This document shows, in pieces, positions 4,989 through 41,274 of a DNA stretch of 54,234 nucleotides. Source of the DNA: Girardia tigrina (Eukaryota). Within the stretch, counting starts at the first letter, position 1, and every line of letters begins with the position of its first letter. A program made the position numbers and the translations under genes. The notes below the pieces were generated by a model. It was not told where the DNA came from. It ran no database searches and saw only the letters and a program-made list of their open reading frames with translations. The DNA lies in assembly GCA_001938485.1 (NCBI GenBank), contig MQRK01202609.1:25827-80060 (forward strand), written 5' to 3'.

Positions 4989-5357
4989 AAAAACTAAAAC
5001 AAAAAAATTTACTTGGATATCTTATTCAAAAAGAACGTCTAATACTTGGCAATGAGCTAAACAATTAAAATAAACTGAAACGAAAAGTAAAAAACAAATA
5101 CAAATTAAATTCAAAATTTATACAAAAAATCCAAGCTTTTCCTATCGTTTATCCGAATGTAACTCCAAAAAAATTAATCAGATCCAGTAATTAAAAGAAT
5201 CGATTTTGAGGGAACTAAATAGAATTTTCTGAAAAGGTTTCTGACAAACTATGACACAGAATTTCTTACTTTTTTGGCCTTAAATATTGTTTGTTGACTA
5301 ACTGAATCATATTCATTGCTGTTTATTCAAAGATAACAAAGGTAATTAAATCAATTC

Positions 5358-5458
5358 AAAATGTGGATGCTTCTGATGGATCTAAACGGTTAAACAGTCA
5401 AGCTGGTTGCAGTAGATTTCAGTTGAAATATTGATGTCAGTTGGTAACAATTTACACA
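5358..5458 (-). repeat. Inverted ~100-bp duplicate of the mariner segment 4568-4668
   Basis: Reverse complement matches with only scattered mismatches. Confidence 0.85.
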
Positions 5459-10989: not shown

Positions 10990-13900
10990 TAGAGCTGCAA
11001 ATAATTAATTTATTTTAAAAGTTAACTTTCAAAAATTAACGATTAATCGATTAATTGATCGCTAATTTCCCGCTCAAAACCACAGTAAAGTTTTTAAAAA
11101 TTTGAATTTTTTAAAAAGCTTTAACCTATTTACAAAGAAAACTCACCCTTAAACGCAATTAAATGGAAAAATGCGAACTTTTTTTAAATTAAAAAGAATA
11201 CGTGCGATAGGGTAAAAACATGTTTATTTATCAATATTTCCGTGAAGAAAAAAAGGGTCAGATGTATGTAAATATTTTTTCTTAAAGTAAAGAAACGATA
11301 AGATCTGGTTATGCTTACTATAGAAATACTAATTTATCCGACTATGTCGTAACCGTTTAATCTAAGTTATAATATTATATTTAATCAGCAAATTAGTTAC
11401 TTTACACAATACGAATTAGGCTTTATTAAAATTTACATTGCTTTTCATTTATATCTAAAGTTTAGATTCTAAACACTTTAAAAATGGGTGGTTTATTTGT
11501 ATATTTTAAATTTATACATAATAAGTTATATAATAAGTTGTTATTTTTCTTACGTTTGTTCCATGTTGTATAAAAAAACAAACACTTAAGGTTTTGGTAA
11601 GTTGTTTTCTGTGTAAATTTATACCTTCAGGGGGTCTATTGTGACCTCACACCCTTGAACTCTCAATCAGAAGCTGAAAAATACCTGGTTATGAAGCTTG
11701 GATCTCATACATCCCTAGCCTACAATCCTTGTAACAAGTTAGTTGTGATAATGCTAATTAATTATTAAATAAATATTTAACTTGGAAATTTTTTACGGCT
11801 TTTGGTATATTATCCTTTAATCCAGTTTGAAATAAAAACTCATACTATAAAATTTTTGCAGGGAATTAATGTTTAATTTTAAAAATTAACAAAATTTACT
11901 ATAAAATACTGACAGAAAAAATATTTATATTTTAAAAACGCGTTAATTTTTAATTAAAGTTCTCGGATAACCAACTATGCAGACACAATAGCATGTTTAC
12001 ACTATTTGGCTCAAGTGAAGAACATGTTTTATTAACAATATATCCAGCAGAGCTAAATAACCGTTCACATGGAACAGATGTGACAGGTATGCAATGAACA
12101 GTTTTACCATAGGAACCCAGTTTTGGAAATATATGTTCATTTAATTTCCACCAATGCAATGGATCAACTGATTCACAAACCTTCTTCTCCAATTTATAAC
12201 GCTGGATTTTGTCAGAAACACTATCAACTCCCTGATCAGAATCTGAATCGGATTCCATTAACTTGATATATTTATCTTTAGATTTATACAGAATTTCATT
12301 GGCAATGTTAATATTACTTTGTTCATTAGTCTCCACCTGGTCAGCGTATGCATAGGTTGTTAAATTTTCTTTTATACGTATCCAAACTCTTTCCTTCATA
12401 TCTTCTGTCAGACACTTTAAATTTTTATAACGTGGATCAAGTGCAGTTGCGATTTGTAGACTTTCTATTGATTTTATTTCAACTACACACTTTGTGAAAT
12501 CATCAATTGAAGCAACTTTGAATCTGACTATGTAGCCAAGATCATTATCATTTACAGCCATGTGCTTTGTCAAACACGTCAGCAGGGCAACACACAACTA
12601 CACGAAGCATATTTTTGACCACCAAGCAGAACAGTTGCCTGGCAGAATAAATCTAATACTTTGACATAGTTCAATATTTTATCCCATTCAGAATCTGATA
12701 AATTTGGAATATTAAGGTGATTCCTTTCGCTTGACATGAAGATTGTTATTGCTTTTCTAGCCTGCAGAAGACTTTGTAGCATAATAAGAAGGCTGTTCCA
12801 TCTTGTGGGGACATCATGTTGCAACTTAAGCAATTCAGATTCAGCACAATTTTCTAGTTCAGCGGTTGAAGCTGCACTGTGTTTGAAATGTCCCACAATA
12901 CTTCGACACCTATCAAAAATGTTTTAGTATCCTAGGCTTTAAATCCGATTAGTATACTTAATTGAAGACTGTGTGCCAAACACAGAATATGAACAAAACC
13001 AGTTTTATTAATTGCAGAAACCATGTTTCTTGCATTGTCTGTTACTATAGCTTGAACTTTATTCGTGAAATTCCACTTTTCTGCAAAATTCATATAAAAC
13101 AAAGCAACATTATCAGCATAATAGCGGTTATTAAAATGTATGCATTCAAGAACAATACTTTTTTAACTCCCAGTCCTTGGTTATCCAATGCCCAGTGATT
13201 CCACACTAACTTTCATTTCCAACGGATTTCCAGAAATCTGTTGTTATCGCCAGTTCCTTTGCATTTTAACTGTTTCTTTGACTATTTTTATCTTGTTTTT
13301 ATACAAATTCGCAAGTAATTTGTTAATTATAGGCCTTGCTGGCAGTTTATATTCCGAGTTTTGAAGTGCTATTGTTGGGTTTTTAAATTATTAATAATTA
13401 TCTTTAATTCAATTATTCAATTTTTAAAACACAAATCTTAAATCTTTATGTTTAATCGTAAATCTCTTTTCTTAATTCTTTAATCAATAATCTTTAATCA
13501 ATAATTCTCAATCAATAATCTTTTATCTTTTGATCTGACTCCAATTATTCAGAAAGGTCTTCCAACATANNNNNNNNNNNNNNNNNNNNNNNNNNNNNNN
13601 NNNNNNNNNNNNNNNNNNNNNNNNNNNNNNNNNNNNNNNNNNNNNNNNNNNNNNNNNNNNNNNNNNNNNNNNNNNNNNNNNNNNNNNNNNNNNNNNNNNN
13701 NNNNNNNNNNNNNNNNNNNNNNNNNNNNNNNNNNNNNNNNNNNNNNNNNNNNNNNNNNNNNNNNNNNNNNNNNNNNNNNNNNNNNNNNNNNNNNNNNNNN
13801 NNNNNNNNNNNNNNNNNNNTTCCTCAGCCTTGAAAATTGATGAGATAAAACAAAGAGTAAAATATTTATAATTTTTGATGAAGTAAAACAAATATTTATG

Positions 13901-14595
13901 ATTTTTAATTCCAAGTTTTATTAAACTAAATATTATTTAGTTTGAAATTAATAATTTTACTAAAAGAATTATTTAAAAATTTTCCTTTATAAAATTTTAT
14001 CAAAAATGTTCACATGTATTTTTCGGAACCCTAACACTATGTGAAATACTTGTTGTAAACCCTCGTCGTCTACAGTTGAAATTGGTCTTCTACTACTAGC
14101 TATCCATGCTGCAAGTGATTCTTGAATGTTATTTTTTAATGTTGAATTAATAGGCCGATTAGATTTCTGAAAGAATTGACTTAAATTGTTTTGATCCAAG
14201 TCCGTTGAAGATTGAGAAGAAGGGTTTTTAGTTTGAGTCTTTTGATGCTGTAGCGGATGCTTTTTTTAAGGTGGTAAGACAATGACGTCTTTGAGCCATG
14301 GTAAGCAAACGATTTTGTACAGTGAATGCAATATATCTTATCAGCATTTTCAATTTTCCCGTCGATCAATAGTTTAAATCTGAAATGGTAATGTAATGTC
14401 CCCGAAATGAGTTTATACTTATTAATTTGTCAATTGCTAGGCTCGTTAGCAACATTTTTTGCATTGTTGTTGGTCTTTTGGAACATTGCTTGATTGGGAT
14501 TCGAAAATTCAAACGATTAATAGTTAAAAAAAATTTAATCAATAATTATAATTAACGATTAATTAATCGATTATTCGTTAACTTCTGCAGCCCTA
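10990..14595 (-). mobile_element. hAT element (Ac/ZBED1-like) inserted in a (TA)n tract
   Basis: TIRs TAGAGCTGCA / TGCAGCCCTA, subterminal AACGATTAATCG-type repeats at both ends, TA microsatellite on both flanks. Confidence 0.85.
11950..14369 (-). pseudogene. ZBED1-like hAT transposase, fragmented
   Basis: BED finger (CIHC...YHL), WIASSRRPISTVDDEG, DVPTRWNS, ATALDPRYK and the C-terminal dimerisation motif IPVTSVPCERLFSSAG. Confidence 0.88.
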
Positions 14596-14635
<40 letters not shown>

Positions 14636-14899
14636 GGAATTTAGAAACCTATTTTTGAAGGCTTTTTACTCAATCGATTTTCTTCAAACTTTGCACACTT
14701 ACTCATTCTCGATGACAATAAATGATAATGTAAAAATTTGATCGAAAAAGTTTTTTAAGATCCCAAAATGGAAAAAAACGGAAAATTCGAAGTTCCCAAA
14801 CAATATTAATTTCAAGATATCTACTTATAAATTATAAGTAGTTTATATTAATTTTTATTGTTTTTTAAGTAAATTTTTTTTTAAATTTTAAAAACTTTG

Positions 14900-16747
14900 T
14901 TGGCAAAGTAGAGTTCTGTCTGCATAAAGAGTTGATCTCATCATTTGACCCAAATCAACAAACTACATTCTCCAATTAATAGATCTCAACTGAAATCCAT
15001 CATTGGCACTTTACAATTCTTCTCACGTTTCACATCAGAAATGAGTCAAATGGCAGCTCCTCCGCTTTATTTGCTAAGCCCAAGGGTTCCTTTCAAGTGG
15101 ACACCAAAGGAGGATGCTGCTCTTTGATCACTTATATCCAAAATTAACTTGACATCCAATTTGGTATTTTATGACATCAAGAAACCGCTCTTTCTCTCTG
15201 ATAACTCCTCATCCACGGGTTTGGGAGCTGTTCTGAGTCATGACAAAGAAAAGAAACAAATAATACATTGTTCATCACGCACTCTCTCTCCAGCTGAGAA
15301 AAATTATGGTAACATAGAACGTGAAGCGCTGGCTATTATCTTTAGCATCAAAAGATTTCATCAGTATTTGGCAGGCACAATTCTAACTGACCATGCTCCA
15401 CTAAAATTTATATTTAACTCCTCCAGAAACATTCCAGAGAGAATTTCAATGAGACTGCAAAGATGGTGTTTAATTTTGAAATATTACGATTTTGACATTC
15501 AATACATCCGTGGTGAAGAAGTTTTCCGTCCAGATCTTTTCAGCCGTATTCCCGATAGCAAAGACAGGGAAGAAAAGCAAGAAGTGGATGACATTTTTTT
15601 TTGCTCAACTGTCATTGGAAGACAAATTTCCTATTTTCAATGACTTGGAAGCTGAAACCAAATCATCTTTATTTAAAACGGTCATTCATTAGGTTCAACG
15701 CGGTTGGCCTCACATAATTAAGAAGAAATTTATTTCATACTCATCAAACAAACACGAATATATTGTGGTAAAGGGTAGCCTACACCGAGGATATAAAGTG
15801 GTAGTTCCACCTTCACTTCGTCAAGCTGTTCTTCGATTCTTTCATGAATTTTATCCAGGTATTATTAGTATGCGTCAACTCATGCGCCAGTTCGTTTTGT
15901 GGCCGGGAATGGATGATGATATACAAAAATTAATCAGCCAGTGTGATCCATGTGCAAAGTCTCAACAATCGAGAGTAAATTACTCCCTTTCTGCGTGGCC
16001 GGAGTCAAGTTAATTCTTCCAACGTTTGTTCATCGACTTATTCTTCTTTCATGACAAGAGTTTCCTTATCCTAATTGATCAGTTCTTTAACTTTGTAGAC
16101 ATTCCATTAAAGCAGTTATCTTCCAATCAAATCATCAGTGCTCTACAAAAGACATTCTGCTAATTGGTCTTCCCGATATTATTGTGTGTGATAATGGAAA
16201 ATAATTTGTCTCCAAGGAATTTAAATCTTGCCTTTCAAGTTGCAATATTGACCTCATGTTAACTCCAACGTACCATTCACCAAGCACTGGAAAACCTGAA
16301 CGAGCAATAAGGAGTGCAAAACTATTCTTATCCAATAATGTGGCTGAAATGGGTTCTGTGGAATACTGTTTACATCAGTTTTGCATCGTCAACAATTTCT
16401 TCTCTAGCTCAAACGGCACAATTTCCTCAACGGAATATTTGAAACACTCTCCTAAAGTTTTAATGAGGAAAGCACTACTGTCCAATAAGCAAGGCATAAC
16501 GGAAGTGGCTATTCCACAAACATAAATGAGAACGACCATAGTCCCAATATCAGGTGGTCGACTAGCTCACAATGGGGGCGTGTTCCACGAGGAAGCCCGA
16601 AGTAGACGTGTTCGTCAACCAAACTCTCGTTATTTCAATAAAAACTTTGTAAATTAATTTTGGGGGATGTTGTATCATATGTTTCATTACCGTTTGTTTA
16701 ATGTTTCAAAAAATAAATAATTCTTCAACTTTGAATTTGATACCACA
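14900..16747 (+). mobile_element. Ty3/Gypsy 3' portion: RT end, RNase H, integrase, PPT and 80-bp 3' LTR
   Basis: Motifs AEKNYGNIEREALAIIF, TDHAPL, RLQRWCLIL, integrase zinc-finger region and core (CDNG, TPTYHSPSTG). GGGGGA PPT, then an LTR TGTTGTATC...GATACCACA (16668-16747) with inverted ends. Confidence 0.88.
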
Positions 16748-16801
16748 TAAAATATAAATAAACATAATATTTAAAAGACGCCATTTTAAAATAAATTTTT
16801 T

Positions 16802-16848
16802 ATTGATGCAATATATTTCGGCGAAATATCCGTCATCATCAGGCAATT
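16802..16848 (-). ncRNA. Minimal type I hammerhead ribozyme remnant (Penelope-type)
   Basis: Minus strand reads AUUGC-CUGAUGA-UGACGGAUAUUUCGCC-GAAA-UAUA-UU-GCAUCAAU: both core boxes and a palindromic stem III. Confidence 0.55.
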
Positions 16849-16959
16849 CTGGTTGTAGCTGTTAAGCTACAATCTTAGCTGAAACGTTGGAATAGCTAAA
16901 TGGATTGAACAAAAACAGTGTTATAGACAGAGTCATGTGATTTAGCGTTTTCCAACATG

Positions 16960-17128
16960 AAGAAAACTTTGACAACATCACCAATTTTAGGGTACCCAGA
17001 TTTTGAGAAAGAATTTATCACGGATACCTACGCTAGTTTTAACACCATTAGAGTGTTTTTTTCACAAAAAGACAGGAATGAAACGAGAGAGTTATAACAT
17101 ACAGTTCACACTTCATGAGTAATCACAA
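16960..17128 (+). pseudogene. Gypsy RNase H fragment
   Basis: Translates as TSPILGYPDFEKEFITDTYASFNTIRVFFSQKD. Confidence 0.7.
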
Positions 17129-17679
17129 AATATTAATAAAATATTAATAGTAAAAATAAAAATAATAAGAATAATAAATTAATGATAATATTTATTATAT
17201 TAAATAAAATAAAAATAAAATATTAATGAAATACCGATACTAATAATAATATAAAAAAATAAAATATAGTAATAATCAAAATAAATATTTAAAAATATTG
17301 ATTAAATAATATAATAATGACATAACAATATTAATAAAATAATAATAATCATCATAATAAATAAATAAATTCTAAAGCCTTTGACGGCTTTTTCCGACAA
17401 AATCAGGTGTGCCCGCTTAATGAAAGGGTCCCTGAGGACGAAGGAAAAACCCGCTGAAAAGGAAATAAATTAATAATAAAAGTAATAATAATTTTAATAA
17501 TAATAATTTCCATATTAATTGAATAATAATACAATAATAATTCTAAAAATTAGTAATAATAAACAACAGTAAATATAATAATAATAATACTAATGATAAT
17601 ATAAATAAAAAAATAATACTAATTATAATAATAATACTAAAATAATAATAATATTTAAAATTAAAGTTTGAACGTGGTT

Positions 17680-18081
17680 TATTGCCAGTCTCCAGATATA
17701 TTATCAGCGTCACTAAAATGAGATCTCTTCTCTCGCCCATCCTATTTTTAATAGCATTTAGCAGTTTTTAGCTTATCTCAATTTATAATCGCTAAAATTT
17801 ATCGAATAAAAAATTTATGAAATTTTTAACTGTTATTAGATTTGCTTCATTTTTACTTAATTCAATGACAGCAGTTTCAACTGGCATGAAAACATTAACA
17901 AAACTTTGGAGTACGCTAATATCATGTTCAGAAATTATATCCATTCTGTTCACAGATGACATCATAAAAAATAATGTTTTAGCAATTAAGAAAAATACAT
18001 ATGTATTCGAATATCAAATATTTAAAAAACAGGCAAATATATTCGAATAGTAAATAAGCAAATACTTATTTGGAATCTCTA
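17680..18081 (-). mobile_element. hAT remnant: transposase mid-region plus a terminus
   Basis: Peptides VLQSFVNVFMPVETAVIELSKNEANL and ERRDLILVTLIIYL. TAGAGATTC-type end at ~18081 with ATTCGAATA subterminal repeats. Confidence 0.5.
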
Positions 18082-18498
18082 AGGTTTATTAAGCATTAAT
18101 TGAGAAGAAAGCAGAACTGGTAAAGATTTATTTTTAATTTAAAATTGTGTTCAATAACACTTTTAAACCATTCCCTAATTTTCATTTAAATATTAATTTT
18201 CAATAACAATGTTTTTTATATACAGTACTTACTCAGTAATTTTTTTGAAAAAATCAATAAGAGCCCCACGGTGGGTAATGATTATGTTAAGTGAAATTAA
18301 ATCTCCCCAAGAAAACAGATGTTACGGTACAAGGAAATATTTTCATAAAAATCCTGAAAATTAAAATATATTTATGAAAAATCAATTTTACATTTAAAAA
18401 GAAAGCTTTAGTGTTACCAAAGCAAAATGATAATTACACAGAATAATTCGAATGACCCGTTGTCACATAAAATACAAGACCAAACAATAGAAATGTTA

Positions 18499-19302
18499 TT
18501 AATTTTCGTTTGGCTTTTCTTTGATCAAACTCATATCAATCTTTCTTCTTGGAGTACTGAAATCGCCTGACGGGGGATTATCGGTAGAATTCGATGATAA
18601 ATTTCCTTCAATAATCTCTTCAACTTCATTTCCAACATTGTCGTCATCAACGTCCTCTTCATCGACTTCATCATCGTCTTCTTCGTCGTCATGTGGGTAA
18701 TCAACTTCATATTCAGACTCGTCTTCCTCTACATCTTCATCGTCGATTTCACTTCCATAGTCATCGAAATTCCCCTCTTCGTTGTCATATTCACATGCGT
18801 CTTCCTCATCAAATTCACTATTACTTACATTATCGTGTGATAAATGTGACTTGGAATAACTTTTCAAGAATGTATTTCTGACATTTTCCTCATCATTTGG
18901 AGATATATTTCGATCAAAGAATTCTAAAGCCTTTCGTGAGCTTGCAGAAAAGGAATGCGAATGTTTCCTTCGACATCCGTTCAAGTACGACTCGTCGCGT
19001 CTACTGCTAAAACTTATCGGATTTTTCGTCGAATATGAAGGTGATATTAGTGTTTTCAAATCGTTATTTGAAAGACATTTTCGTGTCAATGTCAAATCTC
19101 TCGATGCAATCAACTCCTTCAAATAAGGAGACGTGAACATGCAATTGAGAAAACGTTTTTTAGCAACTATATCTATTGTGTCCAAGTTGGCACTTTTTCT
19201 TCGTTTATGTTTGAAATAATTTTTCTTCGGAACATTTTGACTGATTTCTGGCTGGTATTGATCATTATTATAGCAACCAATGTTTTGTATTGAATCATCC
19301 AT
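18499..19302 (-). CDS. Hypothetical 267-aa protein with a basic NLS-like patch and a long Asp/Glu tract
   Basis: Intact 804-nt ATG-to-stop ORF. KHKRRKS patch and a ~70-aa acidic low-complexity region. No TE motif recognised. Confidence 0.65.
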   Translation of the reverse strand: MDDSIQNIGCYNNDQYQPEISQNVPKKNYFKHKRRKSANLDTIDIVAKKRFLNCMFTSPYLKELIASRDLTLTRKCLSNNDLKTLISPSYSTKNPISFSSRRDESYLNGCRRKHSHSFSASSRKALEFFDRNISPNDEENVRNTFLKSYSKSHLSHDNVSNSEFDEEDACEYDNEEGNFDDYGSEIDDEDVEEDESEYEVDYPHDDEEDDDEVDEEDVDDDNVGNEVEEIIEGNLSSNSTDNPPSGDFSTPRRKIDMSLIKEKPNEN

Positions 19303-19499
19303 GGACGGACGTGTAGAAATTTATTATTAAGACTTTAACCAATTTGAAATTTAATTTAATCAATTTTATTATATTACAATTTTATGATATTGTATTTAAT
19401 CCTTATTTATTTATAGTAGATTGAATTTTATTGTCAGAAAACGACAATTAATAAAAATATATAATAAACCTGTTTAATTTTTAATGGGGCGCATACAGT

Positions 19500-20500
19500 T
19501 AGGTATGGCAAAAATCCCGGAAAAATTCAATTCCGGGATTTCGAGAGTGAAAATGATTAACGGGATTCATGTGAAAACTTTAGTAACATTATAATGGGTG
19601 TCATAATTCAGATACAACCGTTTGAAACTTATGAAACACTAAAAATATATATTTAACCACAAATATAATTAAAATAATTCATTGATTAAATAACATAACA
19701 TACATAATTTTGAAAAATAATCTAAATAATTTAATAACTTTTATTTTTTAAAATGCCACCTTAAAAGCATAAAGCATCAATATTTTTACCGTTTAGTCGA
19801 GTTCGATTTTTTGAGCAAAGAAGACTAGCCGCTGAGAATGCTCGTTCACACTCCACACTTGTTGGTTTAATAGATAGTAAATAATCATATACTTTTTGAA
19901 GGTGGTCACCCCTTGTGCCTCCAGTTTCAAATAACAAAATTTCTTTATGAATTTTAGAAATTGTACTTTCCACTCTTGTAGGTAGTTTTCGTATTGACTT
20001 TAATCCTTTTTTCATAGCTTCATTTAATTGTTCACTAATTGTTTTAAAGCTAATACAACATTCGTCAGCTGATAAAATCTGGTTCTGAATATCACTACAA
20101 ATGTCTGATGCAATTATTGTATCTGTCGCATTTATACACTTTAACAGGTTCAACAGCATTTTTTCATATTCATTGTTTTTCATCTTAAGCGAATCATTTA
20201 TACTGAGATCTAAAAATGCTTTTTTAAGACAATTTTTAAACTTGTCAAATCTTTCAAGCATTAGCAACAAGGTGTTCCATCTGGTTTTGCAATCCATAAT
20301 TAATTGAATGACATTTACAAACTCAATTTTACGTACATCTTTAAATAATTGTCATTTCTGGTTGGAGATTTCTTGAAAAAAATTACGATTTTTCTGACCT
20401 TTGTGAAAACAGGTCTAATCATTTGGTGAGTATTCATAACTTCTCTGAAAAATGAACCATTCAAATTCTGAAAACAATCTTCGTCTTCAGAATCACAGTC
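19500..20500 (-). mobile_element. hAT 3' fragment
   Basis: Motifs DCKTRWNTLLLMLERF and IKPTSVECERAFSAAS...RTRL. Terminus TAGGTATGGCAAAAATCCCGG with CGGGAT subterminal repeats. Confidence 0.8.
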
Positions 20501-21004
20501 ACTAGTGTTGGGGAATGTGTTTGTTTGTTCTGATTTTGTTTTTATTTTATCAAAAAAAGTTTTGAATAATAATAGAATATTATTATTCGTTTTTTTATTT
20601 ATATTTTAAAAATAAGTAAATAAAAAATATCATATTATTATTTAAAATATTATATTATTATTTATATATAAAAGTACAAATCTTAATTAATTACATTAAA
20701 GGTCTAGAGGCCAAAGTATTAAATTTTCGAAGAATTTAGTGATTCGGCAAAAGTCAAAGTTCGGTTAGCAGTTTAAAGTAAAGGACATAAGAGACATAAA
20801 AGGATGTTCAAAAGAATCAATAACTGATAATTTTTAAATTTTTTAAGGTAAATTTTTTTTTAATTTTTTTGATAAAACTTAAATTTTTTTAAGATCCTTG
20901 CAGAAACTTTAAATTTTTAAGAACTAATTGGATCTAAAGAATTAATTTATAACTTCTAAACTTTGTTGAGTGCAAGCAATTCCGCGATTTGTAATAAATT
21001 TTTT

Positions 21005-21100
21005 TGTGAACGAGAAATAAGGATTTATTTCAATAACAAGATTTACAAACCGTTCTCCGAATTATGATTATTTAAACAAGTTTTCGACGTTTCCACTACA
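21005..21100 (-). repeat. 3' LTR of the Gypsy element
   Basis: TGTAGTGG...GTTCACA on the minus strand, preceded by the PPT, repeated at 27908. Confidence 0.9.
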
Positions 21101-21149
21101 CTCTCCCTTGCCTTCAAGGCACAAACGCATACGCCTTCTGTGCAATGGA

Positions 21150-23780
21150 GAGTCTCTCTCGGATCTGGTTCTGTCACTCCTGTGAACAAATAATCTGCAA
21201 ATCTCGCTGGCTGAACGGTCGCTCGATTCGGCCTCGGTTGCCGCACCTCATTGGATTGAGTCTGACTGTTTTTAATGGCATCCATTCTCCTATTCAATGT
21301 CTGCTCGTCCTCCTCGTCTGAGCTATCACTACAGGCGCCTGCATTCTTCGATCTAGGGACAACTCGCAAACTCGATATTCCCTCTGCTGTCATTGTTGAC
21401 CAACTCTCTGGCACACGCCTGATGTGTGACACATGGAACGGGATCCCGTCAATCTCGACTTGATGGGGTGGGCGGAATCCGCTCACTACTGCTCGTTTCC
21501 ACTGCGTCGTGCACGTCGCGCTCACCTGTTTCACGAACATGACATCCCAAACTTGTAGATCCCTCGTCTGCACAATTTAAGTGCCCTTTGAAAGTTGGTC
21601 CGCGAAATCGACTGGTAGTGGCAGTCGCCGCCGTTATGCAAACACTGTGGACGCCGAAATCACATCCGTTGAATTTGGAGTGGCGTTGTACCACGCAACT
21701 ATATCGTTGACCGGCTTCCTACTTCGCGCCGCCATGCGCTTGATGATCCGATAGCAGCATTCAGCGATATCGTTTCCTCTGGGTCGATTTGCACACCAAA
21801 ACCGCATTTCGACACCCATTTCGGAAAGCAATCGTCGGATTGCCTCTCAAAAATGTGTCATGAAATTATCCAGTAGAAGCTCTTGTGGTGGGCCGAATTC
21901 ATTGAACACCGCTTTCAGAGTGGCAAACAAATATCCATCGCATTCTGAAGCGATCCTTCTCCATACTTCGAACCGGTTCGGTCCGCAATCGACCAGTGTC
22001 ATGTACTTTCCCTCAGATGTGTGTGTCACGTCCATGGCGAGCCGCTTCCATGTTTCTTTGACGCCAAGCTCGCCTTTCTCCCACTTTACTTGTGACGGAT
22101 CGATTAATGCGCTCTGAAGACATCATTTTCCCACCGCCTGCACCTACTTCTCAGTTATTCGCCCTGGACCCCACATATTACTCTCCAAGAACATCATCCG
22201 CTTCACTCCGAAATGGTGGATAGCATGGAGCGCCTGCAGACGATCTATCGGCTGCCCCTTTCCCTCCATCGTTACTGCCGCCACATTCGGTCGATCTTTT
22301 GATGCTATCACCCAGTCACTAGGCACGCGAGTGAGGCCATCTGCTCGGTTCTCTGTTGAACTGAACAATTTGCACTCCACTTGAAGCTTCTCCTCTTCGA
22401 TAGTCTGCTTGATTGTGCAGATGCGTCGCTTTACGAGCAGCTCACTCATCCCACTGGATCTAACCGGTCCATCGCCCCTGGTAGCGTTTGTTGCCTTTAT
22501 TGCCTCATTAGCCGCTTCAAGTTCTGCCAGGTTAATGTGAGCGGCGTCATCCTCCTTACGAAGCCACGAAGCATCCTCGACCACCGCTTCCCCTATAACG
22601 GTCGCGATCGAACTTGCATCACATCACACTTGACCGTATTTTCGGTCGGGTACTTCCCACTTGTCGTTCACCGGATCTTCGTTCGCGAGCCGTTCCGCCA
22701 ATGTCTGCGCAATGTCAACTACACGTGGTTCTATTGTATCGTCCTAACCGCCTCTACAGGCCAGCCTTTTTAAGAAACTACATGCCAGTCTCAGCCAACC
22801 ACACATCTGCAGCTTCCGTAATTTGTGTATCCGACCCGAGCACGTGGTCCATGATACGCCTCATAATTTTTGGGGCCGCGTTCAATCCAAAGCCCAGTCG
22901 CGTCAGGCACCACATCTTCCCCTCGTGGTGGATCACTTAATAGGGCCATAGTCTCGAGTCCACCTTAATTTGCAGATATGCTCACCTCAAATCGATTATC
23001 TCGAGCGATGACCCCATCTTCCGCCATTTGCGCAGCTTTTCAGCGCACACCAGGCTTTCTGTGGTGTGGCTGGACACGAACTCGTTTAAGGCTATGTAGT
23101 CTAGCACCGGTCGCATCTTCCCCTTTGCCGCCTGAATCACCGCCATCAGAGGCAAAATTGCCTTTGCTTAACCATTAAACGGGATGAGGCACCCGTTTTT
23201 CTTCCATTCGGACAACTCCTGGATCACATCTTCTTCGTACTGTTTGGCCGAAGCGTATGCGGCCTCTCCCCCCAAGCAACTCTGGTGACTCCTCACCACT
23301 CTTCCACTTCCATAATGCGGTTGTCAAACTCGACAATAAAATCAGAATCGTCAATCCGCATGCGTCCCGGTTGCTTCGCTCTGCCCACCGCTGCCTGATA
23401 TTCAATCTGTCCAAGTTTTGGGGTAACACATCTACCGGGCACCTACACGCCCCAAGTTGGTTAATCGCGTCCATGCCGAAAAGAATCCCCGTCCTCGACT
23501 CGGCAACTTCTAGTACCACTAGAACACGACATTCGATCCGCTTGCCGCTGCACTCAATCGACAGGGTCGCTTTAAATTGCACGACCACCGCCGACCCGTA
23601 CATCATCCAAACAACTTCTTCAACTCAATCCAGCTTTGCCGACGGGATCATCGCCTTCGCTATGACTGACGTCGAACATCCTGTGTCGACCCTTGCCCTT
23701 GCAGTCCTTCCACACACGATCACAGGAACGAATAGAAGTCGCGCGTCACCGCAACCAGGCTCCCCAACCGCGCGATAGTG
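21150..23780 (-). pseudogene. Gypsy pol (protease, partly deleted RT, RNase H, integrase)
   Basis: Motifs ARVDTGCS, LDYIALN, AYLQI, LTRLGFGLNAAPKIM, EDASWLR...HINLAELEA, ENRADGLTR, MDVTH...LVDCGP...LLLDN. Many frameshifts; YxDD not seen. Confidence 0.88.
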
Positions 23781-23788
23781 AGGACCCG

Positions 23789-24545
23789 CTATTCGTTTCC
23801 CGCTCGGTCAGTTTTTAGGCGCGGGTACCTTACAATGCGGCCCACCCGACCGCAGCTGAAGCATCTGCTTTCCCGTTCATTATCTTGGTTCGCGGTTCGA
23901 TCGGTTGTATTATGGGCACTCCGCCTACCTGTCGCACATTCACGCGCCAAATGCCCAATCCCGCCGCAACAATAACATCTCGGTTCTCCTGTATCGGGCG
24001 ACGGGAACGGTGGTGGCCGATCCAATGGCCATGCAGCTGCCGCTGTCTCATCAGTGGGTTCACGTCTTGCCTTGACATGCACTCGAGCCCATCGGACCAA
24101 GGTTTCCAGATCCAACGTTTTGTTGAGCGCTTCGGCCTCCACACTTCTCATGGCTTCCTCGAGCAGCCCATTTATGAAGGCCTGAGCCACAAAAGCCTCC
24201 CAGTGGCCTCTGTTGCCACAGATGACAGCCGCTTACCGCTTCAAATCAGCCATGAAAACATCTACGCCCTCACCGGGTGCAAGCTGTCGGGATGTACAAC
24301 TCACCCATGATAGCTTCAGGCTTTGGGCGAACGCTTCTGTAAGTGCGGCTGTGCTCTTCTCAAAATCTTGCCGCATCTAGTTACTGAATTCACGGAATAC
24401 GACTGATGCCTCGCCCATCAGTGCAAGTGACAGCATCACCAGCTTGTTCTCTTTGAGCGTATCCGCGCACTCGCGATATCGCTCGATCCAAATCGAAAAA
24501 TCCCCCGAGCCCGTCATACGCCGGTCCGATTTTCAGAGTCTTCAT
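23789..24545 (-). pseudogene. Gypsy gag with CCHC zinc knuckles
   Basis: MKTLKIGPAYDG.../FSIWIERY..., knuckle CYCCGGIGHLAREC and a degenerate second knuckle. Confidence 0.85.
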
Positions 24546-24799
24546 CAAAAAGCCGCGATAGCCTGTTGTCACGACCCTTTCGAGTGAAAACATTTTTAAA
24601 ATCTCCCAGTGATTGTTAAGGGTCAATCACAACCCACGTTAAATTTATTTCGATTCTAACGCCATTATATATAGGGTCGGACGCCTCCTATCTTGCCTGA
24701 CATCTGCCTAGCAGTGCCAAGCTCAAGGGGCCTTCGGGTTCAGCTAAAGGTAGGATAGGCTGTGGGCCCCCCCACCTGGGTCAGCATCAATAGGGGATG

Positions 24800-26103
24800 A
24801 TTTCAATTTGTACAGTTGAGTAATTTTCTGCTAATTACATCGCTTATGTCTGCCCGTAGAGGTGTGCTGACATTATATATTTGAAAGGTTAGTTTATCGT
24901 AAGAATTAGAGTTCATAATAAAGTCGTCGTCATTTCGGCCATCTTATCTCTGTTCTAATCCAGCTTACTACGTTTTCTGGAAACCTCTCCCTGGCACTCT
25001 TGTCTAGAATAATTTTTCCTCATAATATTAAATCCTAGTATCGTTTAGCAGAGGCATCTGATCATATTACATCTAATTCGTAGTTCAGTCATTAAATTTG
25101 TATAGAGTCTAAAAGGAAATCCCTATCTAAATTCGTTGATTTTCTCCGGAAACCTAATTTCAAATATCAACCATATCTTATAAATTTTTATTGATTTAGT
25201 AAACGATATTTTATATTTATCAAACAACCAAATGATATTCACAACTTTAAAAAATGGTAAATAAATATCATGTTATTCTAGCAATCTTAAATTAAACTTT
25301 CAGCCGATCGTTCTGACATCTCCAGTCACTATGAAAACAATAAGGATTGTGTAAATAATTACTTCGAAGTTTTCTATTTATTTTAATTATTTACAGGACT
25401 CGATCGTGAAATTTATGGAATAAAATTTTTAAATTTGATAAAATAACATTAATTGGATAAAATTTACGAAATTTCGCAGAAAAAAATTTCTTTTTTTTTA
25501 TAATATCATAAGTTTCGCTACATATTCGTCCAAATTACTACAATTTTATCATAATGATCCAATTAATCAGGTAATCGAATTCTGCAAAAAGTCGCATGAA
25601 AATTATAAAAATTTATTTAATGAATAAAAATCATGAAAGTAATTAATAGTAAAATCTATATTATATACAAAAATTTTACGTTCAAAAAAATAGGTTTGTT
25701 TTAATATTCCAATCCTATCCTCGAGGTCGCGCCACCAAATCAAACCCCGTCGGATTTTATCATCATGTTTCTGGCGGAACGGAGTTTCTCTCGACTCTAT
25801 TGCCGTTTGATTAATCTAGGCGACTCGCGATTCCACGCTGTCTGGAGTCCACTCAATACGAGCACCTCAGTTAAATAACTTAATGGTAACGGTCTCTCAT
25901 CGACGATGATTAAGATACTGCGACCTTCATTGATTTATTCAGGCAATCGATAATTACTCCGGGGCATCTACGATGCAGGACGACGACGGCGGCTGTTGAG
26001 ACTTAACGATTTGGAACTCGTGGCCGTCCGGACTAAACCGGTGAAGGAGAATAACCCATCGGCACTTAAACTCGGTTAGATAATATTATATTCGATCAAT
26101 AAA
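24800..26103 (+). pseudogene. Putative decayed multi-exon gene inside the insertion
   Basis: GT-AG intron candidates at 25257-25303, 25351-25396, 25639-25693 (weaker at 24820-24859 and 24888-24963). GC-rich last exon and AATAAA at ~26098. No continuous ORF. Confidence 0.4.
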
Positions 26104-26309
26104 TACCTATAACTGAATTAATTAATAGAAAAGGATAAGAAGGATTAAATGTAAACTGTAATTCAATTTAAAATAAATTCAACTTGAAACATTTATTTAA
26201 ATTTTTAAAACCAAAATGAAATTCGTCAATATAAAATGAATACAATATACTAATTTAATTTACTATAATAGTGTTCGGAGGAGTGTTAAATCTCGGGTCA
26301 ATCGCTAGT

Positions 26310-26960
26310 TCACGGGTCGTTCTTCGTCGGCTATCTCGATAATAAGTCGGGGTACTCAGTCACGGTTCTGCACTGGAATTGGCTGTCTCAAGTCGCGGCT
26401 GTGGCCCTCTTTTTCGATTTCGTCACCGTCTATCACCAATGAATCCCGCTCTGTGGCTGATCGTTGGTGTTTCCCCTTGGTTATTTGACTTGCTTCTTTC
26501 TCCTGGCTATCGTTGGATTGCGCTACTGCGGTTCGTTGCTCAAATCGATTTTCTTGAAGGTACGTTAATACATCGTCTCAAGCGTCTATCAAAATTGTGT
26601 GACTTAGTTAACCACTTCTGTGGTCAACCTCTTGGAAAAAAAATTGGCATTGTGCCAAATTTGTCCGTGTAATGTTCTAATAAAATATCTGCGAGTCTCG
26701 GTGAGGTATAAAAGTTGTCTGTGGTAAGACAATGTCCTAAATGCAATATGGGTTTCATCAGATGCATAACAATTTGCCCGAATCCAGTTCGGGCAAATCA
26801 CTGTGTCAGCAAAATACCTACCCGAATGGTATTCGGGCAAATCACAGAAGTGGTTGACTTTTCTTTTATATTCTAGATATGCTATCCTGTTGTCTTCTTT
26901 TGTCCAACCAGATCTCGCCAACCCACTGTCTGAAATTTCTGCAATGCTAGTTGGTTATGC
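26310..26960 (-). pseudogene. Frameshifted ORF of unknown function inside the insertion
   Basis: 105-aa ORF (26604-26921) with Cys/His residues, followed in another frame by a ~73-aa hydrophilic stretch (DDVLTYLQENRFEQ...). Confidence 0.4.
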
Positions 26961-27063
26961 TGGTAAGTGTGTTTCTAAAAAATTTTCGAAATTTTAAAAC
27001 TTTTTTACTTTATTATAAGATCCAGTGCTCGTGTGTCTTTACACACTCACAAACTTCTCCAAC

Positions 27064-27855
27064 ATGCCTGCTGCTGATTCATGGATGATTCACATGGAAT
27101 CATCAGCTAACGATTATTTTCGGATTCTGGGTTGACTCATGGTAAAATTAATTAATTTTCTATTTTTCTTAATTAATTGTTTGATCTTTCAGGGGCTGTA
27201 ACTTTTCTCGAGGAGATCCTACGGCCTCGCTGGTTTTGCCCACGGATTACCCGCGCGAAGATCTTTCGTGGGAGGGTCGGTCGACCCTGTGGCACCATCG
27301 GATAATTCAGTAGGTGAGTTTGTTGTTTTCTTTCTGATTTTTAATTAATTTTTTCTCTTTAAGAGTGAATAACTTCTTTCAGGGATCCGCTGTTGTCTCA
27401 CACGTTCTGCCCATGGATCCGTCTCGCGAGGGGCTACGTGGAGGGGGTTGGATGACCTCTCAGCTCCAATAGGTAATTCGGTAAGCGACTTTATTAATTT
27501 TTGGTTTTATTTTAATTAATTTTTTTCTTTCAAGGTTTACTATCTCTACTCGCGGGTTCTTCAAACATCGAGGGGTCATTCTCGCGGATTCCCCGCAGTG
27601 TTTCTGCCTGTGGCGGGGCGGTTGTTCGCCCTCTTTAATCGGGTAAGTTTTAATTCGACTCTGTCTCGTCTTTCTTTATGTGTTTCTAGTTCCCATGCGC
27701 ATCTCCAGTGTCTCGCTGCTCTACGAGGGGATCGGGGTCATCTTTGCCGTTCGAATTGGTGTTATTATTTAAATATATGTATTATTTGTAAGGGATTCCT
27801 TTGTTTTCTTTATGTTTGCTGCATGTTGTGTTTGGTGATTTGTGGGTTCGCGTAG
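27064..27855 (+). pseudogene. Five-exon gene with tandemly duplicated exons inside the insertion
   Basis: TATAA at ~27014 and caacATG at 27064. Introns 27142-27192, 27310-27363, 27481-27534, 27643-27689. Internal exons 117/117/108 nt. One frame has a single stop across exons 2-5; a frameshift is needed in exon 1. Confidence 0.65.
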
Positions 27856-27907
27856 AATGTGTTTCTGTTCGTAACAATGTTTTGTGATGTATTTCGGACC
27901 GCAACAC

Positions 27908-28011
27908 TGTGAACGAGAATAATGAAAATAAGGATTTATTTCTATAACAAGATTTAAAAACCGTTCGCCGAATTCTGATTATTTAAACAAGTTTTCGACG
28001 TTTCTACTAAA
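27908..28011 (-). repeat. 5' LTR of the Gypsy element
   Basis: Near-identical to 21005-21100, with an 8-bp indel and a few substitutions. Confidence 0.9.
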
Positions 28012-29369
28012 ATGTCGCGATGATACAAAGTTTGAATGTTCGACAATTAGGGATATATATATTAAAATTTTATTTGGAAAAATATTTAATGAAGTTTTAA
28101 ATAATTTTTACTAATTTTTGTTCTGTATAATTTTTAACACAACGTATATTAATATTTTTTAAATATTTTATAATTTGTTTTACAAAATCAATTGAATAAA
28201 TAAATAAAAATAGTTATTTAAGCAATTAAAAAATTGACTTAGCTGAAAACTTAATTCCAAAAATAATTTTGAATAAAGAGAAGCCAGTGAAATTTGCAGT
28301 AATCCTTAAAGAATTTGAAGTAACATTTTATTATTGTTCTTTCCTCTTAATAATCAAGTATCCTGTAAAGGAGAACACGATTAAAACAATTGTCATTTTT
28401 CACCGTTATTGCTCGTACAAACGTATTGACATTGAAGAACTGTGTGTTCAGCGTTTATTAATTATTGTTGGATTGTTATTTAGATTTGTACTACAAGCGG
28501 TAATTGATAATTGAAGATTGAAACATTTATTTGAAGCTGTGTTTAAATTTGTGTTATTAAAAATAAAAGTTATTAAGAGAATTTGTGTTCACTTGTTCAT
28601 ATATTTGTGTTGGAAGTGCCTACTAAATTATTGGAGTCAGATATAAAGTTGCGATCAAAATATTGATAATAAACTTTGAATATTTTGAATACCCAACACT
28701 AAATTTTTATAAACGGAAGCCGTGTCTGTTATTGGGATTAATTTTTGGATCGAGAAATTAATTTGATTTTGACGGAGTTAATTTGAAATTTTAAATCGAG
28801 GTAAAGGATTTTACAATTATAAAATTTAGTAATATTTTTCTTTTTTTTAACGGCTTAAATTTAATTGGAAATATTTTTAATTTAAGTTTAACTTAAAATT
28901 ATATTATAAGAATTTTCCATAATAAAAGTCCAAAAAATAGATAATGTTTATTTTTATGACACAATCAAATAATGCTCGTCTAAAATTAATTACACTGATT
29001 GATTTAAACAATCTCAGGAGTTATTATATATTCAGGATCCTTTGATATAATATGATATTGCTATAAATAATTATATGTATTTTAATTTATAAACATATAG
29101 TTATTAATTATTCTCACATATATAACTATTAATATTTTGAAATTATATTTCTTAAACTGACCTACTTTGTTTGATAAGTGACACTTATCAACAAAAAATT
29201 TATTAGAATAAGTATTTTCCTCAGTGAGATATATTCCATATTTATAAATATAGATATTATTTTATTATTTGTGAATTGTTCATAATAAATTATTTTTTAC
29301 TTTTAAAAACAATTTTTGTGTTCTTCCTCATTGTTCAAAATTCAAATCATCTATTCTAAGATCAATAAT

Positions 29370-33425: not shown

Positions 33426-34058
33426 CTGTGAAAAGAAATATACTAATACGTTTTGAGCCGTTTATTCTGAATTTTTTATAGTATCTGTAAAATCGCGTGG
33501 CGTAATAAAACAAGCAAAATCGTGAGAAAGATAATGGTTACACAAAGCTGAGCACCACGTGGTAAAACTTTGGACGCGTACGGTAATGTGCGTTCAACAA
33601 AAGAATATGCGTGAGAAAGGTGCGTGGCTCAAAATTCTCTGTGAGTGAAGTACGCGTGAGAGAATGCGCAGTTGTGTATCGCTTGATTAAAAGAATAAGG
33701 TACGCATGACCACGCAGCAGTAAAGGACGCATCATGCGTGAAGACTTATCATAATAATAATAATTTTTTTTAAATAAATAATAAGATATTTAATTTAAAT
33801 TATTTTATATAGAAATATAAATAATAAATAAATACATGCTAAAAAATAACACAAAAATACTATAATATGTTAAAAATAACACAAAAATATTATAATAAAA
33901 ATTCACAATGTTTCTATAAACAATCAATCAACAACAACAAAAAAAGTCTATATTTATATTACCCCAACAAAATTATTTCATTAGTTTTCGTTTTACGTGA
34001 TTTTGTGACCGAATATTTTTGAAATATGATAGAACAAAAGTCGATCATCGTTAAGAAA

Positions 34059-34390
34059 ATGTCATCTAACATCACAAGTAATCTTACAATCAGCGGTGAA
34101 CGATTTACCGGTGACAATGTTCGTCGACAAAACACATTAGCCATCCAAACGATCGCCAATATCGTCAAAACGAGTCTCGGTCCAGTCGGTCTCAATAAAA
34201 TGCTCGTCGACGACGAGGGCGAAGTGACAATCAGCAATAACGGCGCGACAATTCAGAAACTAGTCGAAATCGAACACCCGGTGGCGAAAATTCTCGTCGA
34301 ACTCGCCCAACTCCAAGACAAAGAAGTTTGCGACGGAACGACCTCCGTGGTGATAATCGCCGCCGAATTGTTGAAACTCGTCGAAGAACA
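34059..34390 (+). pseudogene. TCP1: T-complex protein 1 subunit alpha (CCT1) 5' fragment
   Basis: IANIVKTSLGPVGLNKMLVDD...GATI...EIEHPVAKILVELAQLQDKEVCDGTTSVVIIAAELLK. Similarity ends after ~110 aa and conserved nucleotide-binding residues are altered. Confidence 0.85.
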
Positions 34391-35244
34391 AATCAAATCG
34401 ATATTTTTTCTATGTGATCTCGCGGTGTTATCAAATTTCAGAAACAAAAGATCATGTGAGATCTATCCCAATAATCTCAAATTGTCTATTGATGGTTCAG
34501 CTCTGTAACAGTACTCTAATTCTTAGGTTAATGTCTTTGTTTCGCATGCATGGTATGTCCTTGCTTTGAGTTTCTTTATACAATGACATCCGAGTTGACC
34601 TTCAGCTCCACACAATGAACATTTTAAATATAAACACTCTCTTCTGACATGTCCGAACCCTGTGAAAAAGATAACCATCATATGAAGCCTCGTTATACTG
34701 TACCATTTCCGGTTATTTCTATTAAAGGTAATCTCGAGCGTCTGAAGCCAGCATTCGGTTTTTCCAAAGACGAGAACCACCCCGAACTCCGTTCTTCTCC
34801 AAGGGGGCTATGTGGTGATGTCATTCCTCACCACATTCAATAATATTGAACTTCAATGATGTCACATCTCATGACATCACTAGAGTTCAAATTCAGGTGA
34901 TTTAATGTCATGACATCACCGGAATATGGAATTGCATAAACTGACCCATTGCCTTAATATAAAAGATCGACGATTTTCCAATTGAATTGGTTAGCAAACC
35001 CTAATCAATATTTTTTATAATAAATTTTATTATCTAGTTTGCGTTCTTTATATATATATATATATATTCTTAATTTAAAATATATGCATGTATAATTGAA
35101 AATATACTTATGTATAATTTAAAATACTATAATAGTAGAATAATTCATAATTTTGAAATTATTAGATTATCAACAAATATAAATTATTTAAACATTCGTG
35201 TTTAACTGAAGTATTTGTTACTCAAATCAGCTGATTCAAAAAAC

Positions 35245-38616: not shown

Positions 38617-41274
38617 GGGGCACGAAAATTAAGTCCCGAAAAATTAAATCTCTGAAATTAAAATCTTGTCATTATTTTATGTTTCAGAAAATTAAATCTC
38701 AGACAATTATTTTTTGTAAAACTTATATTTTTATTACAATTTAAAATTTGTAAAATAAAATTTAAAAATAAATGAAAAATCTAATAAAGTTATAAAAAAA
38801 TAAATAAAATTTGTTTTGAATTTTGTTTATAGTCGCAATTGGAGTTTTATCATTTAGTTTGTAATAAACGTGTTTTGAATTTATTTGGATTAAACGTTTC
38901 TGATGGATTCTTCGGATGACGATGTCAAATGTTGGGAAGACGATGAATTGCAAAATTACAATTTTTTATGTTTTATGTGTTCCAATTCGTTCATGGAATT
39001 AAAACTGATGTTCGATCTAATTTCAAAGACCAACAGCAATCGATCGACACGGGAGTCAGTATGACGAGAGCCGGGTTCATCAAGAGACTTTCGAGTCAGC
39101 AAAAATTAATTTTTTATTCCCCTCAACCCCAAAACCCTCCACTCGCAACGTGGTGCTGCAGCCACGCTGCGCATGCTCTGTCATCACCGACTTCAGTTGC
39201 AACAGATTTTGAACAGGTAGAATTTCGAGCAATTCAAGAAGCATGGATACTTAAATTCATGGATTTTTTTTTCATTTGAATCAAACAACGTGCCGAAAAG
39301 TTGGAATTTTGTTTTGTACATGCATTATGTCTCATGTCTCAAGTCTCTCTATGATCACAATAATGATTTTCGTCTTTGATGCAAAATGATCACAGCTTTG
39401 GCTTTTTTCCCATTGATAAACTTTATCACGCTTTTAAGGCTCTTGTTCAAGCGTTTCCAGATGATATCAAAGTGTTTGCAAATTGGCTTGAGGATAATTA
39501 CTTTGGCCACATTATTGGTCGCAGTAGTCGGGCTCAATGAAAGTGAACCATTGTTCTCGCCACAGATCTGGTAAGTATTACGTGGTGCGATCCATAAAGT
39601 CCTTAGACTCGACAAGAAAGCAAAGTCCAATCAACTTTATTTTTTCAGAATCAGTACATGACATCAAAGTAAATCATTTCTCGATGTATGAGCCGTATAC
39701 ATCAACACACTTGCGCCAGCGAGCAACAAGCTCAGAGAACGCATTTTTGCAAAAATTGGGAGGCAAAGAATTGAGAATATCAAGGACTTTCCCTTTGAGG
39801 ATATCAACTGAATGAAAGTGGACACCTTTCAAATATTTCTTTAGGTGTTTAAACAACGCAAAATTTCTTGGAGCTAGGTCAGGGCTATAGGGGGTGGGAA
39901 AAAAACTGAAAGCCACAGTCATCCACAGCAGTCAAAGTTGCTCGCTAAGTTGAATGGGTGCATTGTCTTGAAGGAGCCACAATGGGAACCCTCTTGGCTT
40001 CCTACTAGACTTTCTCACATCGCGAAGTAATTCAACATAATACTCACTATTCAGTGTAAGTCCTTTCTCAAGGAAATTAATTTTAATAATGCCATGGGAA
40101 TCCAAGAACACAGTCAGCATTGCTGCTCACTTGTGCGAGGTGTCGCTTCTAAGTTTTCGGGGAGCACTTTCACAGGGGAAACACCACTCAGAAGATTGAC
40201 GCTTGCTCTCAGGCACATAAAAGCTCACCGGGGTTTCATCTTGTGTAACGATGTTGTTGATGAAGCGATTACCATGAGTGCGAAGCAACTCCAAATAAGC
40301 AGTGCAACACTGCAAACGTTTGTCGCACATTTCACCGGATAGGAATCGGGGAACAAAACGTGAACACAGTTTGCGAACTCCAAATGATTGCAGAATATCA
40401 TATGTAGAATGGTAGCTGATGGATAGACGCTGTGTAAGTTCATGGATGCTTATTCATCTCTCTTCCGACACAATCTTCATGCACAAATCACTTTTTCCGG
40501 GTAAAATTTCCCACGGTCGTCCTGATCTCTCAGCATCAAAAACGGATTGTCGGCCATGTTTTAAGTCTCTGATCTAATTATACACTGTTGCACGTGATGG
40601 GCACTGGTCACCGTAAGGTTCCTGCAATTGCTGCAAAATATCGCAGCTTTTAGTATAGCACAGGAGCAGAAATTTTATCACTCTGCGATATTCGACGTTA
40701 CTGATGTATTTTATTTTTTAGGAACTTGCATCGTTGTGTCTTGGACCACAACGATCTAACAAATGACTTCAGAATCTGCTAATAAACGATTGCAAAAGAA
40801 GCTCTTCTTAGACTATCTGGTTGGGCTGAAAGTAGCTCAAGCCACTCGCGACAAAGAATATAAAGAATTTATTGGTGGCCTACATCGATGTCAAAAACGT
40901 CGAAAGTATCAAAAAGAGGATTCCAGCAATTGTTGAAGGCGGATTTGGAGAGGGTGGCAAGCGCACAATCGTTGAATACTTACACGGTCTTGTACAAAAT
41001 TTTAAAATGGACCAATGACTTATGTTTAAAAATAATAAATATGTTGCTACGTAAATTGTTATTTTTTACTTCTTTAATTTTTTTAAAAATTTACTGGATT
41101 TTTTAAAATTTTTATAATTTTATTAGATTTTTCATTTATTTTTAAAATTTATTTTACAAATTTTAAATTGTTTTAAAAATATAAGTTTTAAAAAAAATAA
41201 TTGTCTGAGATTTAATTTTCTGAAGCTTAAAGTAATGAGAAAATTTTAATTTCTAGACTTAAATCTCTTGCTCC
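38617..41274 (+). mobile_element. Mutator-like element (MULE) with ~180-bp TIRs, interrupted by a mariner
   Basis: Long inverted termini (e.g. TTCAGAAAATTAAATCTCAGACAATTATTTTT and its reverse complement) with AATTAATT-type flanks. Peptides TDFE..., MITALAF, WLEDNYFG, PLFSPQIW, and VEYLHGLVQNF after the mariner. Confidence 0.8.
39581..40887 (-). mobile_element. mariner (DD34D-type) element nested in the MULE
   Basis: Motifs IVTQDETPV, LNSEYY, LLQDNAP, PYSPDLAP, RWRKCVDVYGSYIEK. TIRs degenerate. Confidence 0.85.

Follow-up and report, generated by a model that had tools for sequence, protein, structure and literature searches.

Burro (GYPSM1) elements are giant Gypsy-like LTR retrotransposons of planarians, with an interior of up to 25 kb and a total length near or over 30 kb (PMC6431247). 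In the available part of their description, they are arranged as gag-Ubl-(BCL2-like)-env-PR-dUTPase-RT-RH-IN and encode one polyprotein of ~5,000 aa, with BIR/RING (B-IAP), ankyrin, and MATH domains in Burro1 (PMC6431247). Burro1 has been reported as an aid to stem-cell survival and regeneration (cited in PMC13465017), and planarian LTR elements including BURRO1 are repressed by PIWI, with piRNAs that are mostly antisense (PMC8532177). The element that we describe here is of the kind already described as Burro; giant Burro LTRs are already known, and identity as a solo LTR is ordinary.

Among retroviruses, BLV makes the antisense RNAs AS1 and AS2, MMTV encodes sag in its LTR, and the antisense RNAs of deltaretroviruses start in the 3' LTR and extend into the interior. 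Deltaretroviral antisense genes include HBZ of HTLV-1 and APH-2 of HTLV-2 (PMC11963269). In plants, Ogre LTRs measure 1.9-6.5 kb, extra ORFs occur in Ogre/Tat elements, and the antisense units of Retand, Grande, and RIRE2 are ORFs that code for protein and lie in the stretch from pol to the 3' LTR (PMC6431247; PMC11963269).

A candidate solo LTR inside a small Gypsy element

The window (the whole stretch of DNA analysed, 54,234 nucleotides) contains an element of 3340 bp that starts with TGTCACGACCC and ends with GGACCGCAACA, in the form TGT...ACA. The features at this site are as follows.

24567..27906, minus strand: solo LTR, almost certainly from a giant Gypsy element of the Burro type; ~3.1 kb when the nested MITE is subtracted
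24563..24566, unstranded: target site duplication CTGT, left copy
27907..27910, unstranded: target site duplication CTGT, right copy; shares 3 bases with the end of the host element's 5' LTR
24567..24673, minus strand: LTR 3' end with TATA-like box (24665-24673), AATAAA (24644-24649), and putative short R and U5
26612..26854, unstranded: 243-bp MITE with terminal inverted repeats and a TTAA-like site, within antisense intron 1
21005..28011, minus strand: decayed small Gypsy element, unrelated to the LTR and interrupted by it at its own LTR/PBS border

A sequence-only reading of this DNA had proposed a 3.3-kb TG...CA element with CTGT on both sides, an imperfect inverted repeat whose mismatches are all transitions, and neither an internal direct repeat nor reverse transcriptase or integrase. 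All of this was borne out for 24567-27906 and its CTGT flanks (24563-24566 and 27907-27910): the 11-bp terminal inverted repeat matches at 7 of 11 positions and its four mismatches are transitions, self-BLAST found no internal repeat in the segment, and ORF inspection found no RT or integrase ORF inside it. The proposed span was right, but 243 of the 3340 bp belong to the MITE at 26612-26854, which is missing from other LTR copies and by that comparison is an addition later than the LTR; the LTR proper is therefore ~3.1 kb.

The small host Gypsy element has LTRs of ~100 bp (21005-21100 and 27908-28011) and a gag zinc knuckle near 23789-24232. The site is empty in 14/14 other host Gypsy copies fetched, with the 4-mer position single in each, so the CTGT duplication is real and not a chance match. 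A preference for insertion at LTR/PBS borders was considered and is not supported, the flanks of other ends being diverse.

The last ~240 bp of the LTR, in which we place putative R/U5 borders, are common to most subfamilies. TATATATA was found at 24666-24673; the minus-strand TATA-like and AATAAA words pointed out by the sequence-only reading are both present but only partly conserved (23/84 and 39/84 LTR ends, respectively). About 40 nt before the 3' terminus, most copies have a PBS-like CTGGGGGCTC followed by a small GCTC-GAGC hairpin in U5, and the window copy has an 8-bp deletion at this site, near 24600-24612.

Copies, primer binding site, and polypurine tract

An exact search with the 12-mer of the LTR end gave 2576 matches in the 1.43 Gb genome, against 297 for the control. 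Other copies with both termini, on which the earlier reading depended, exist: both LTR ends were recovered in 9 of 20 fetched stretches, and the closest LTR copies are ~90% identical to that of the window. When the duplications were tabulated for the ten complete solo copies including the window, as that reading had suggested, seven had a perfect 4-bp duplication and three matched at 3 of 4 positions.

When flanks were compared for the first 32 left ends and the first 20 right ends, no common interior emerged except at one end, later tied to the family interior, and the PBS came to light only by pattern search. Searching for the LTR end followed by TGG gave one recurrent continuation; the exact LTR-end-plus-PBS pattern has 125 matches in the genome, a lower bound, and none in the control. 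This PBS is complementary at 18/18 positions to the 3' end of the host tRNA-Pro(TGG). The pattern for that 3' end had matching bases in all 16 of its matches, and tRNA calling identified seven genes in 4/5 loci as tRNA-Pro; the tRNA-Pro(TGG) genes lie in tandem in L141-L144 with a spacing of ~647 bp. The internal leader after the PBS is shared among copies. Because only 125 exact PBS ends stand among ~2,300 ends above control, most copies of the family are likely solo LTRs.

At the other border, the short polypurine run GGAGGAA joined to the LTR start has 12 matches, and the 3' interior of the family lies upstream in 12/12. In one of these, L070, an LTR start that is 92% identical to that of the window over 167 bp directly follows the PPT, and the 1.2 kb upstream of the PPT is 72% identical to the 3' interior of the full copy described below. 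Read from these borders, the sense strand of the LTR is the minus strand.

The sequence-only reading had kept a non-autonomous Ginger-like DNA element as its alternative; such an element would be mobilized by a free integrase. Ginger1 and Ginger2 have TGT...ACA ends, a 4-bp duplication, long inverted repeats at their termini, and an autonomous partner that encodes integrase alone. The ends and the duplication are the same here, and the segment has no pol inside; however, long inverted repeats are absent (the repeat matches at only 7/11 bases), as is a stand-alone integrase, and the same ends occur with a PBS after them or a PPT before them and as direct pairs around gag-pol, in a family that has RT. 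These observations refute the Ginger-like alternative, to which we give next to no probability. A TRIM-like reading was likewise rejected, as the ends lead into a PBS and paired LTRs bound a full interior.

The parent element and its relation to Burro

A complete copy of the family (G000:C227859:31463-60179) spans 28,717 bases, of which 2,481 are N, with an interior of 23,716 and the target duplication TAGT. Its direct LTR pair, which flanks gag-pol as the sequence-only reading had anticipated, is 99.7% identical over 606 bp and 97.1% over 747 bp. This LTR represents a sister subfamily and can be matched to the window LTR, at 67%, in its final ~240 bp only; none of the copies examined was a complete element of the very subfamily found in the window. 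A second copy, C231567, connects the two, with an LTR that is 76% and 88% identical to that of the window over two parts and an interior that is 81-86% identical to C227859 from gag to RT.

Pfam matches in C227859 follow the order gag, ubiquitin-like, fusion protein, protease, dUTPase, RT, RNase H, and integrase, which includes the Ty3/Gypsy pol order PR-RT-RH-IN. The matches to RT (E = 7e-38), RNase H (2e-38), and integrase (5e-12) are joined by a Monjiviricetes fusion glycoprotein (PF24664, 2e-25) in three consecutive ORF pieces between gag and protease (E 3e-22 to 8e-26), the last of them in frame with the protease. Matches to gag, ubiquitin, protease, and dUTPase are weaker; the ubiquitin/SUMO-like domain after gag and the dUTPase between PR and RT (E = 2.5e-5 and 1.5e-3) fall under the Pfam cut-offs and, in two copies, are located where expected. 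A BH2-like motif is present upstream of env, after the ubiquitin-like domain; the top PDB matches of this BCL2-like region are to Bcl-xL, at a weak E of 0.28, and its single-sequence model has a pLDDT of 45. The copies seen are interrupted by stops, frame changes, and N gaps. After the integrase, two long ORF pieces of 852 and 473 aa with several hydrophobic stretches (L181:3041-7018, minus) gave no Pfam match and no usable atlas match; they may possibly encode a second membrane protein. Repeated LTR-end plus leader or PPT segments lie close together in C231884 (L169/L190), C167640, and C177160, and could be either rearranged copies or assembly artefacts.

This family resembles Burro, as far as the available part of PMC6431247 describes it, in size (23.7-kb interior, 28.7 kb in total), in its thousands of LTR ends and probable flatworm host, in a gene order with a mononegavirus-like fusion env between gag and protease and a dUTPase between protease and RT, and in its upstream accessory ORFs. 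It differs from that description (PMC6431247) in a leader with 7-9 short ORFs that have an acceptor-like AG before the ATG, and in a spliced antisense unit in U3, which is unmentioned for Burro in the available part of the text. Since no Pfam match to BIR, RING, ankyrin, or MATH was found in 14 ORF pieces of C227859 and 4 of C231567, we do not class the family as Burro1. A protein search with the element's pol returned no named Burro protein among the 120 matches listed; the closest listed relatives are unnamed proteins at 41-44%, two of them with the same fusion-plus-pol domains. Four public proteins of 2,440-3,243 aa (P0016, P0018, P0031, and P0032) have the Monjiviricetes fusion and pol in one frame, at 36-44% identity to the pol of this family, and are further Burro-like relatives. 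Of the genetic codes, code 9 (AAA = Asn, ATA = Ile) gives the best reading of the COX1 copies in this assembly, consistent with a flatworm host; this code is also used by echinoderms. We infer a triclad host.

Together, the PBS, the PPT, the paired LTRs, and the full interior support the original proposal of a solo LTR from an unusually large, cargo-carrying Gypsy-type element, and we consider it almost certain that a giant Gypsy element of the Burro type left the segment behind as a solo LTR.

An antisense unit with six candidate introns in U3

On the strand opposite to the sense of the LTR, U3 contains a candidate multi-exon unit.

26270..27790, plus strand: antisense seven-exon unit in U3, both ends putative
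26560-26876, 26963-27018, and 27142-27192, plus strand: candidate antisense introns 1-3
27314-27363, 27481-27534, and 27643-27689, plus strand: candidate antisense introns 4-6

The six introns are short and AT-rich, and intron 2 no longer ends in AG in the window copy. At introns 2-5, the donor GT is present in 18-19/19 copies, against a mean of 73% for other GT, and the acceptor AG in 14-18 of 18-19 copies, against a mean of 51% for other AG. The intron-6 donor is GT in 16/18 copies, and the intron-1 acceptor is AG in only 8/18. No genomic copy without introns 2-5 was found among 19.

Assembled contigs from one public run (X1) skip introns 1, 2, 3, and 6, with joints at 26560>26878, 26962>27019, 27140>27192, and 27641>27689; this run is from another organism, with a share of 0.06 and a guessed RNA status, and was aligned at 80% likeness. 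The intron-1 joint fits GT..AG only with a one-base shift, suggested by copies in which G is the first base of exon 2. The same run also contains unspliced pieces, and 8 of its 12 listed joints are other than these four, with non-canonical ones among them; introns 4 and 5 have no joint among those listed. Among the runs listed, none with the sequence is recorded as RNA. In the other runs, two contigs matched in X2 and none in X3 and X4, and the uncovered parts are uninformative.

Beyond close copies, intron-like matches in 27 LTR heads from many subfamilies numbered 40 on the antisense strand, 1 on the sense strand, and 2.2 in shuffled sequence, under an intron rule that was set after the sequence was seen and with a shuffle that breaks local AT blocks. 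Such matches occurred in 20/27 heads and were absent from 7/27. We regard antisense splicing in U3 as probably real.

A protein product of the antisense exons was considered and rejected, as no frame has both a low pN/pS and few stops. Across all frames, pN/pS is 0.5-1.2, versus 0.28 and 0.32 for two internal ORFs, and 0/8 distinct indels in exon 4 keep the frame. The antisense unit has no Rfam match at E<=1, and the fold z-scores of the exons are unremarkable (best -2.5). Given splicing, the unit is probably non-coding.

Exons 4 and 5, in which palindromic motifs occur, go back to an old duplication of a single unit. These features suit a different account of the same solo Burro-type LTR, in which the "exons" are degenerate ~165-bp enhancer repeats and the AT-rich spacers are incidentally spliced in read-through from host promoters, with no dedicated antisense gene. 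The lack of coding signal and of an Rfam match, the lack of a mapped promoter, and RNA evidence from a single run agree with that account. It does not, however, explain why the splice dinucleotides are kept better than other GT and AG, why antisense intron-like signals persist in subfamilies whose U3 is barely alignable, or why sense-strand intron-like matches are nearly absent (1 vs 40), and we consider it rather improbable.

We prefer the reading in which a solo Burro-type LTR, left by a high-copy parent of ~29 kb, carries a conserved six-intron antisense unit in U3 that is likely expressed as a spliced non-coding RNA, with a probability of roughly 0.72. This arrangement resembles the plant Ogre/Tat and Retand elements in its LTRs of several kb, its extra ORFs, and its antisense unit, and differs from them in that its antisense unit is confined to the LTR, contains six introns, and lacks a coding signal (PMC6431247; PMC11963269). 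It would share with deltaretroviruses and MMTV an LTR-linked antisense transcription, likely regulatory, and genes in U3; unlike the deltaretroviral case, the unit here fits entirely within U3. A literature search turned up no account of a spliced antisense unit within the LTR of a Burro or other Gypsy element. This is weak evidence of absence, as the primary Burro descriptions and their supplements, which may describe LTR transcripts, were outside the scope of the search. A canonical TATAAAAG is present on the sense strand (window 26863-26870, minus), where it overlaps the pyrimidine tract of antisense intron 1; it could be an internal sense promoter.

A possible sense ORF in U3

25700..25967, minus strand: possible short sense ORF in U3

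From the ATG at 25967, this frame is open for 56-102 codons with the same ATG in 12/16 copies, down to 68% DNA identity; in the window copy an early stop breaks it. It belongs to a further alternative, in which the LTR carries true protein-coding cargo as this sense ORF, a peptide from the spliced antisense RNA, or both. Besides the open frame, this alternative draws on a scarcity of stops, found in 3/32 at-risk columns against 26/98 in other frames (Fisher p 0.03, with the frame chosen post hoc among several blocks). The pN/pS of 0.61 (0.47-0.81), however, overlaps that of the other five frames, 0/3 distinct indels keep the frame, tblastx of the middle of U3 against other subfamilies gave no match, and the ORFs of exon 1 are not the same across subfamilies. 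The 108-aa frame in U3 has no Pfam match. We judge it unlikely that the short sense ORF is coding, although this can be true alongside the solo LTR and its antisense unit; as an explanation of the locus in its own right, protein-coding cargo appears very unlikely.

U3, according to the sequence-only reading, held about three gene-like units. It does contain three GC-rich blocks, but none has a coding signal like that of the internal ORFs: one, the best supported, is the probably spliced and likely non-coding antisense unit, one holds the weakly supported sense ORF, and the third (24800-25100) shows no coding signal.

Leader ORFs of the family

In C227859 and C225448, the first 6 kb after the PBS hold 7-9 tandem short ORFs of 100-157 aa that are coiled-coil-like (for example, L165:3373-5898, minus). 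The two leader ORFs tested are under purifying selection (pN/pS 0.28 and 0.32 for two internal ORFs). An acceptor-like HAG lies 0-4 nt before the first ATG in 52/65 leader ORF copies, which are not independent of one another, versus 461/1634 of all ATGs. This pattern points to a polycistronic RNA that is processed by alternative cis-splicing or by spliced-leader trans-splicing.

Other features of the window

An intronless fragment of CCT-alpha (TCP-1) at 34023-34508 on the plus strand is probably a processed pseudogene. Inverted-repeat pairs at 38654-41253, 4568-5458, 598-1015, and 13527-28648 are likely DNA transposons, and ORF remnants at 11950-12597, 19761-20351, 50360-51591, and 2547-2978 are what we take to be hAT-like and Tc1-like sequences.

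Proposed history and implications

Under the preferred reading, reverse transcription would have been primed by tRNA-Pro, and a full copy would have integrated at the LTR/PBS border of the small Gypsy element. Recombination between its LTRs would then have excised the interior, so that a single LTR stayed behind between matching CTGT copies; the MITE presumably landed in this LTR afterwards. The antisense introns could outlast reverse transcription, since it is RNA of the opposite strand that is packaged, and this RNA would not be spliced there. Every LTR, the many solo ones included, may be a source of antisense RNA; with the whole unit within U3, each solo LTR would keep a full copy. We predict, tentatively, that the antisense RNA has a regulatory role, in which case it would most likely damp the element, by pairing with 3' U3 RNA or by feeding small-RNA silencing.

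The family's primer (tRNA-Pro), polypurine tract, and 4-bp duplication are now fixed, and the parts of specialist interest are the LTR-internal antisense gene and the battery of leader genes. Exon-junction sequences are exclusive to the antisense RNA, so stranded and small-RNA data would give a direct test. Burro elements are present in planarian genomes in thousands of copies. A bolder and less probable view is that Burro-type elements are built like complex retroviruses, with a complete intron-bearing antisense gene in each LTR, thousands of solo LTRs acting as sources of RNA that controls the family, and 7-9 leader genes spliced to an acceptor before each start codon. If true, this would amount to a new design of self-control, in which a retrotransposon LTR carries a multi-exon regulator of its own that spreads as solo LTRs form.
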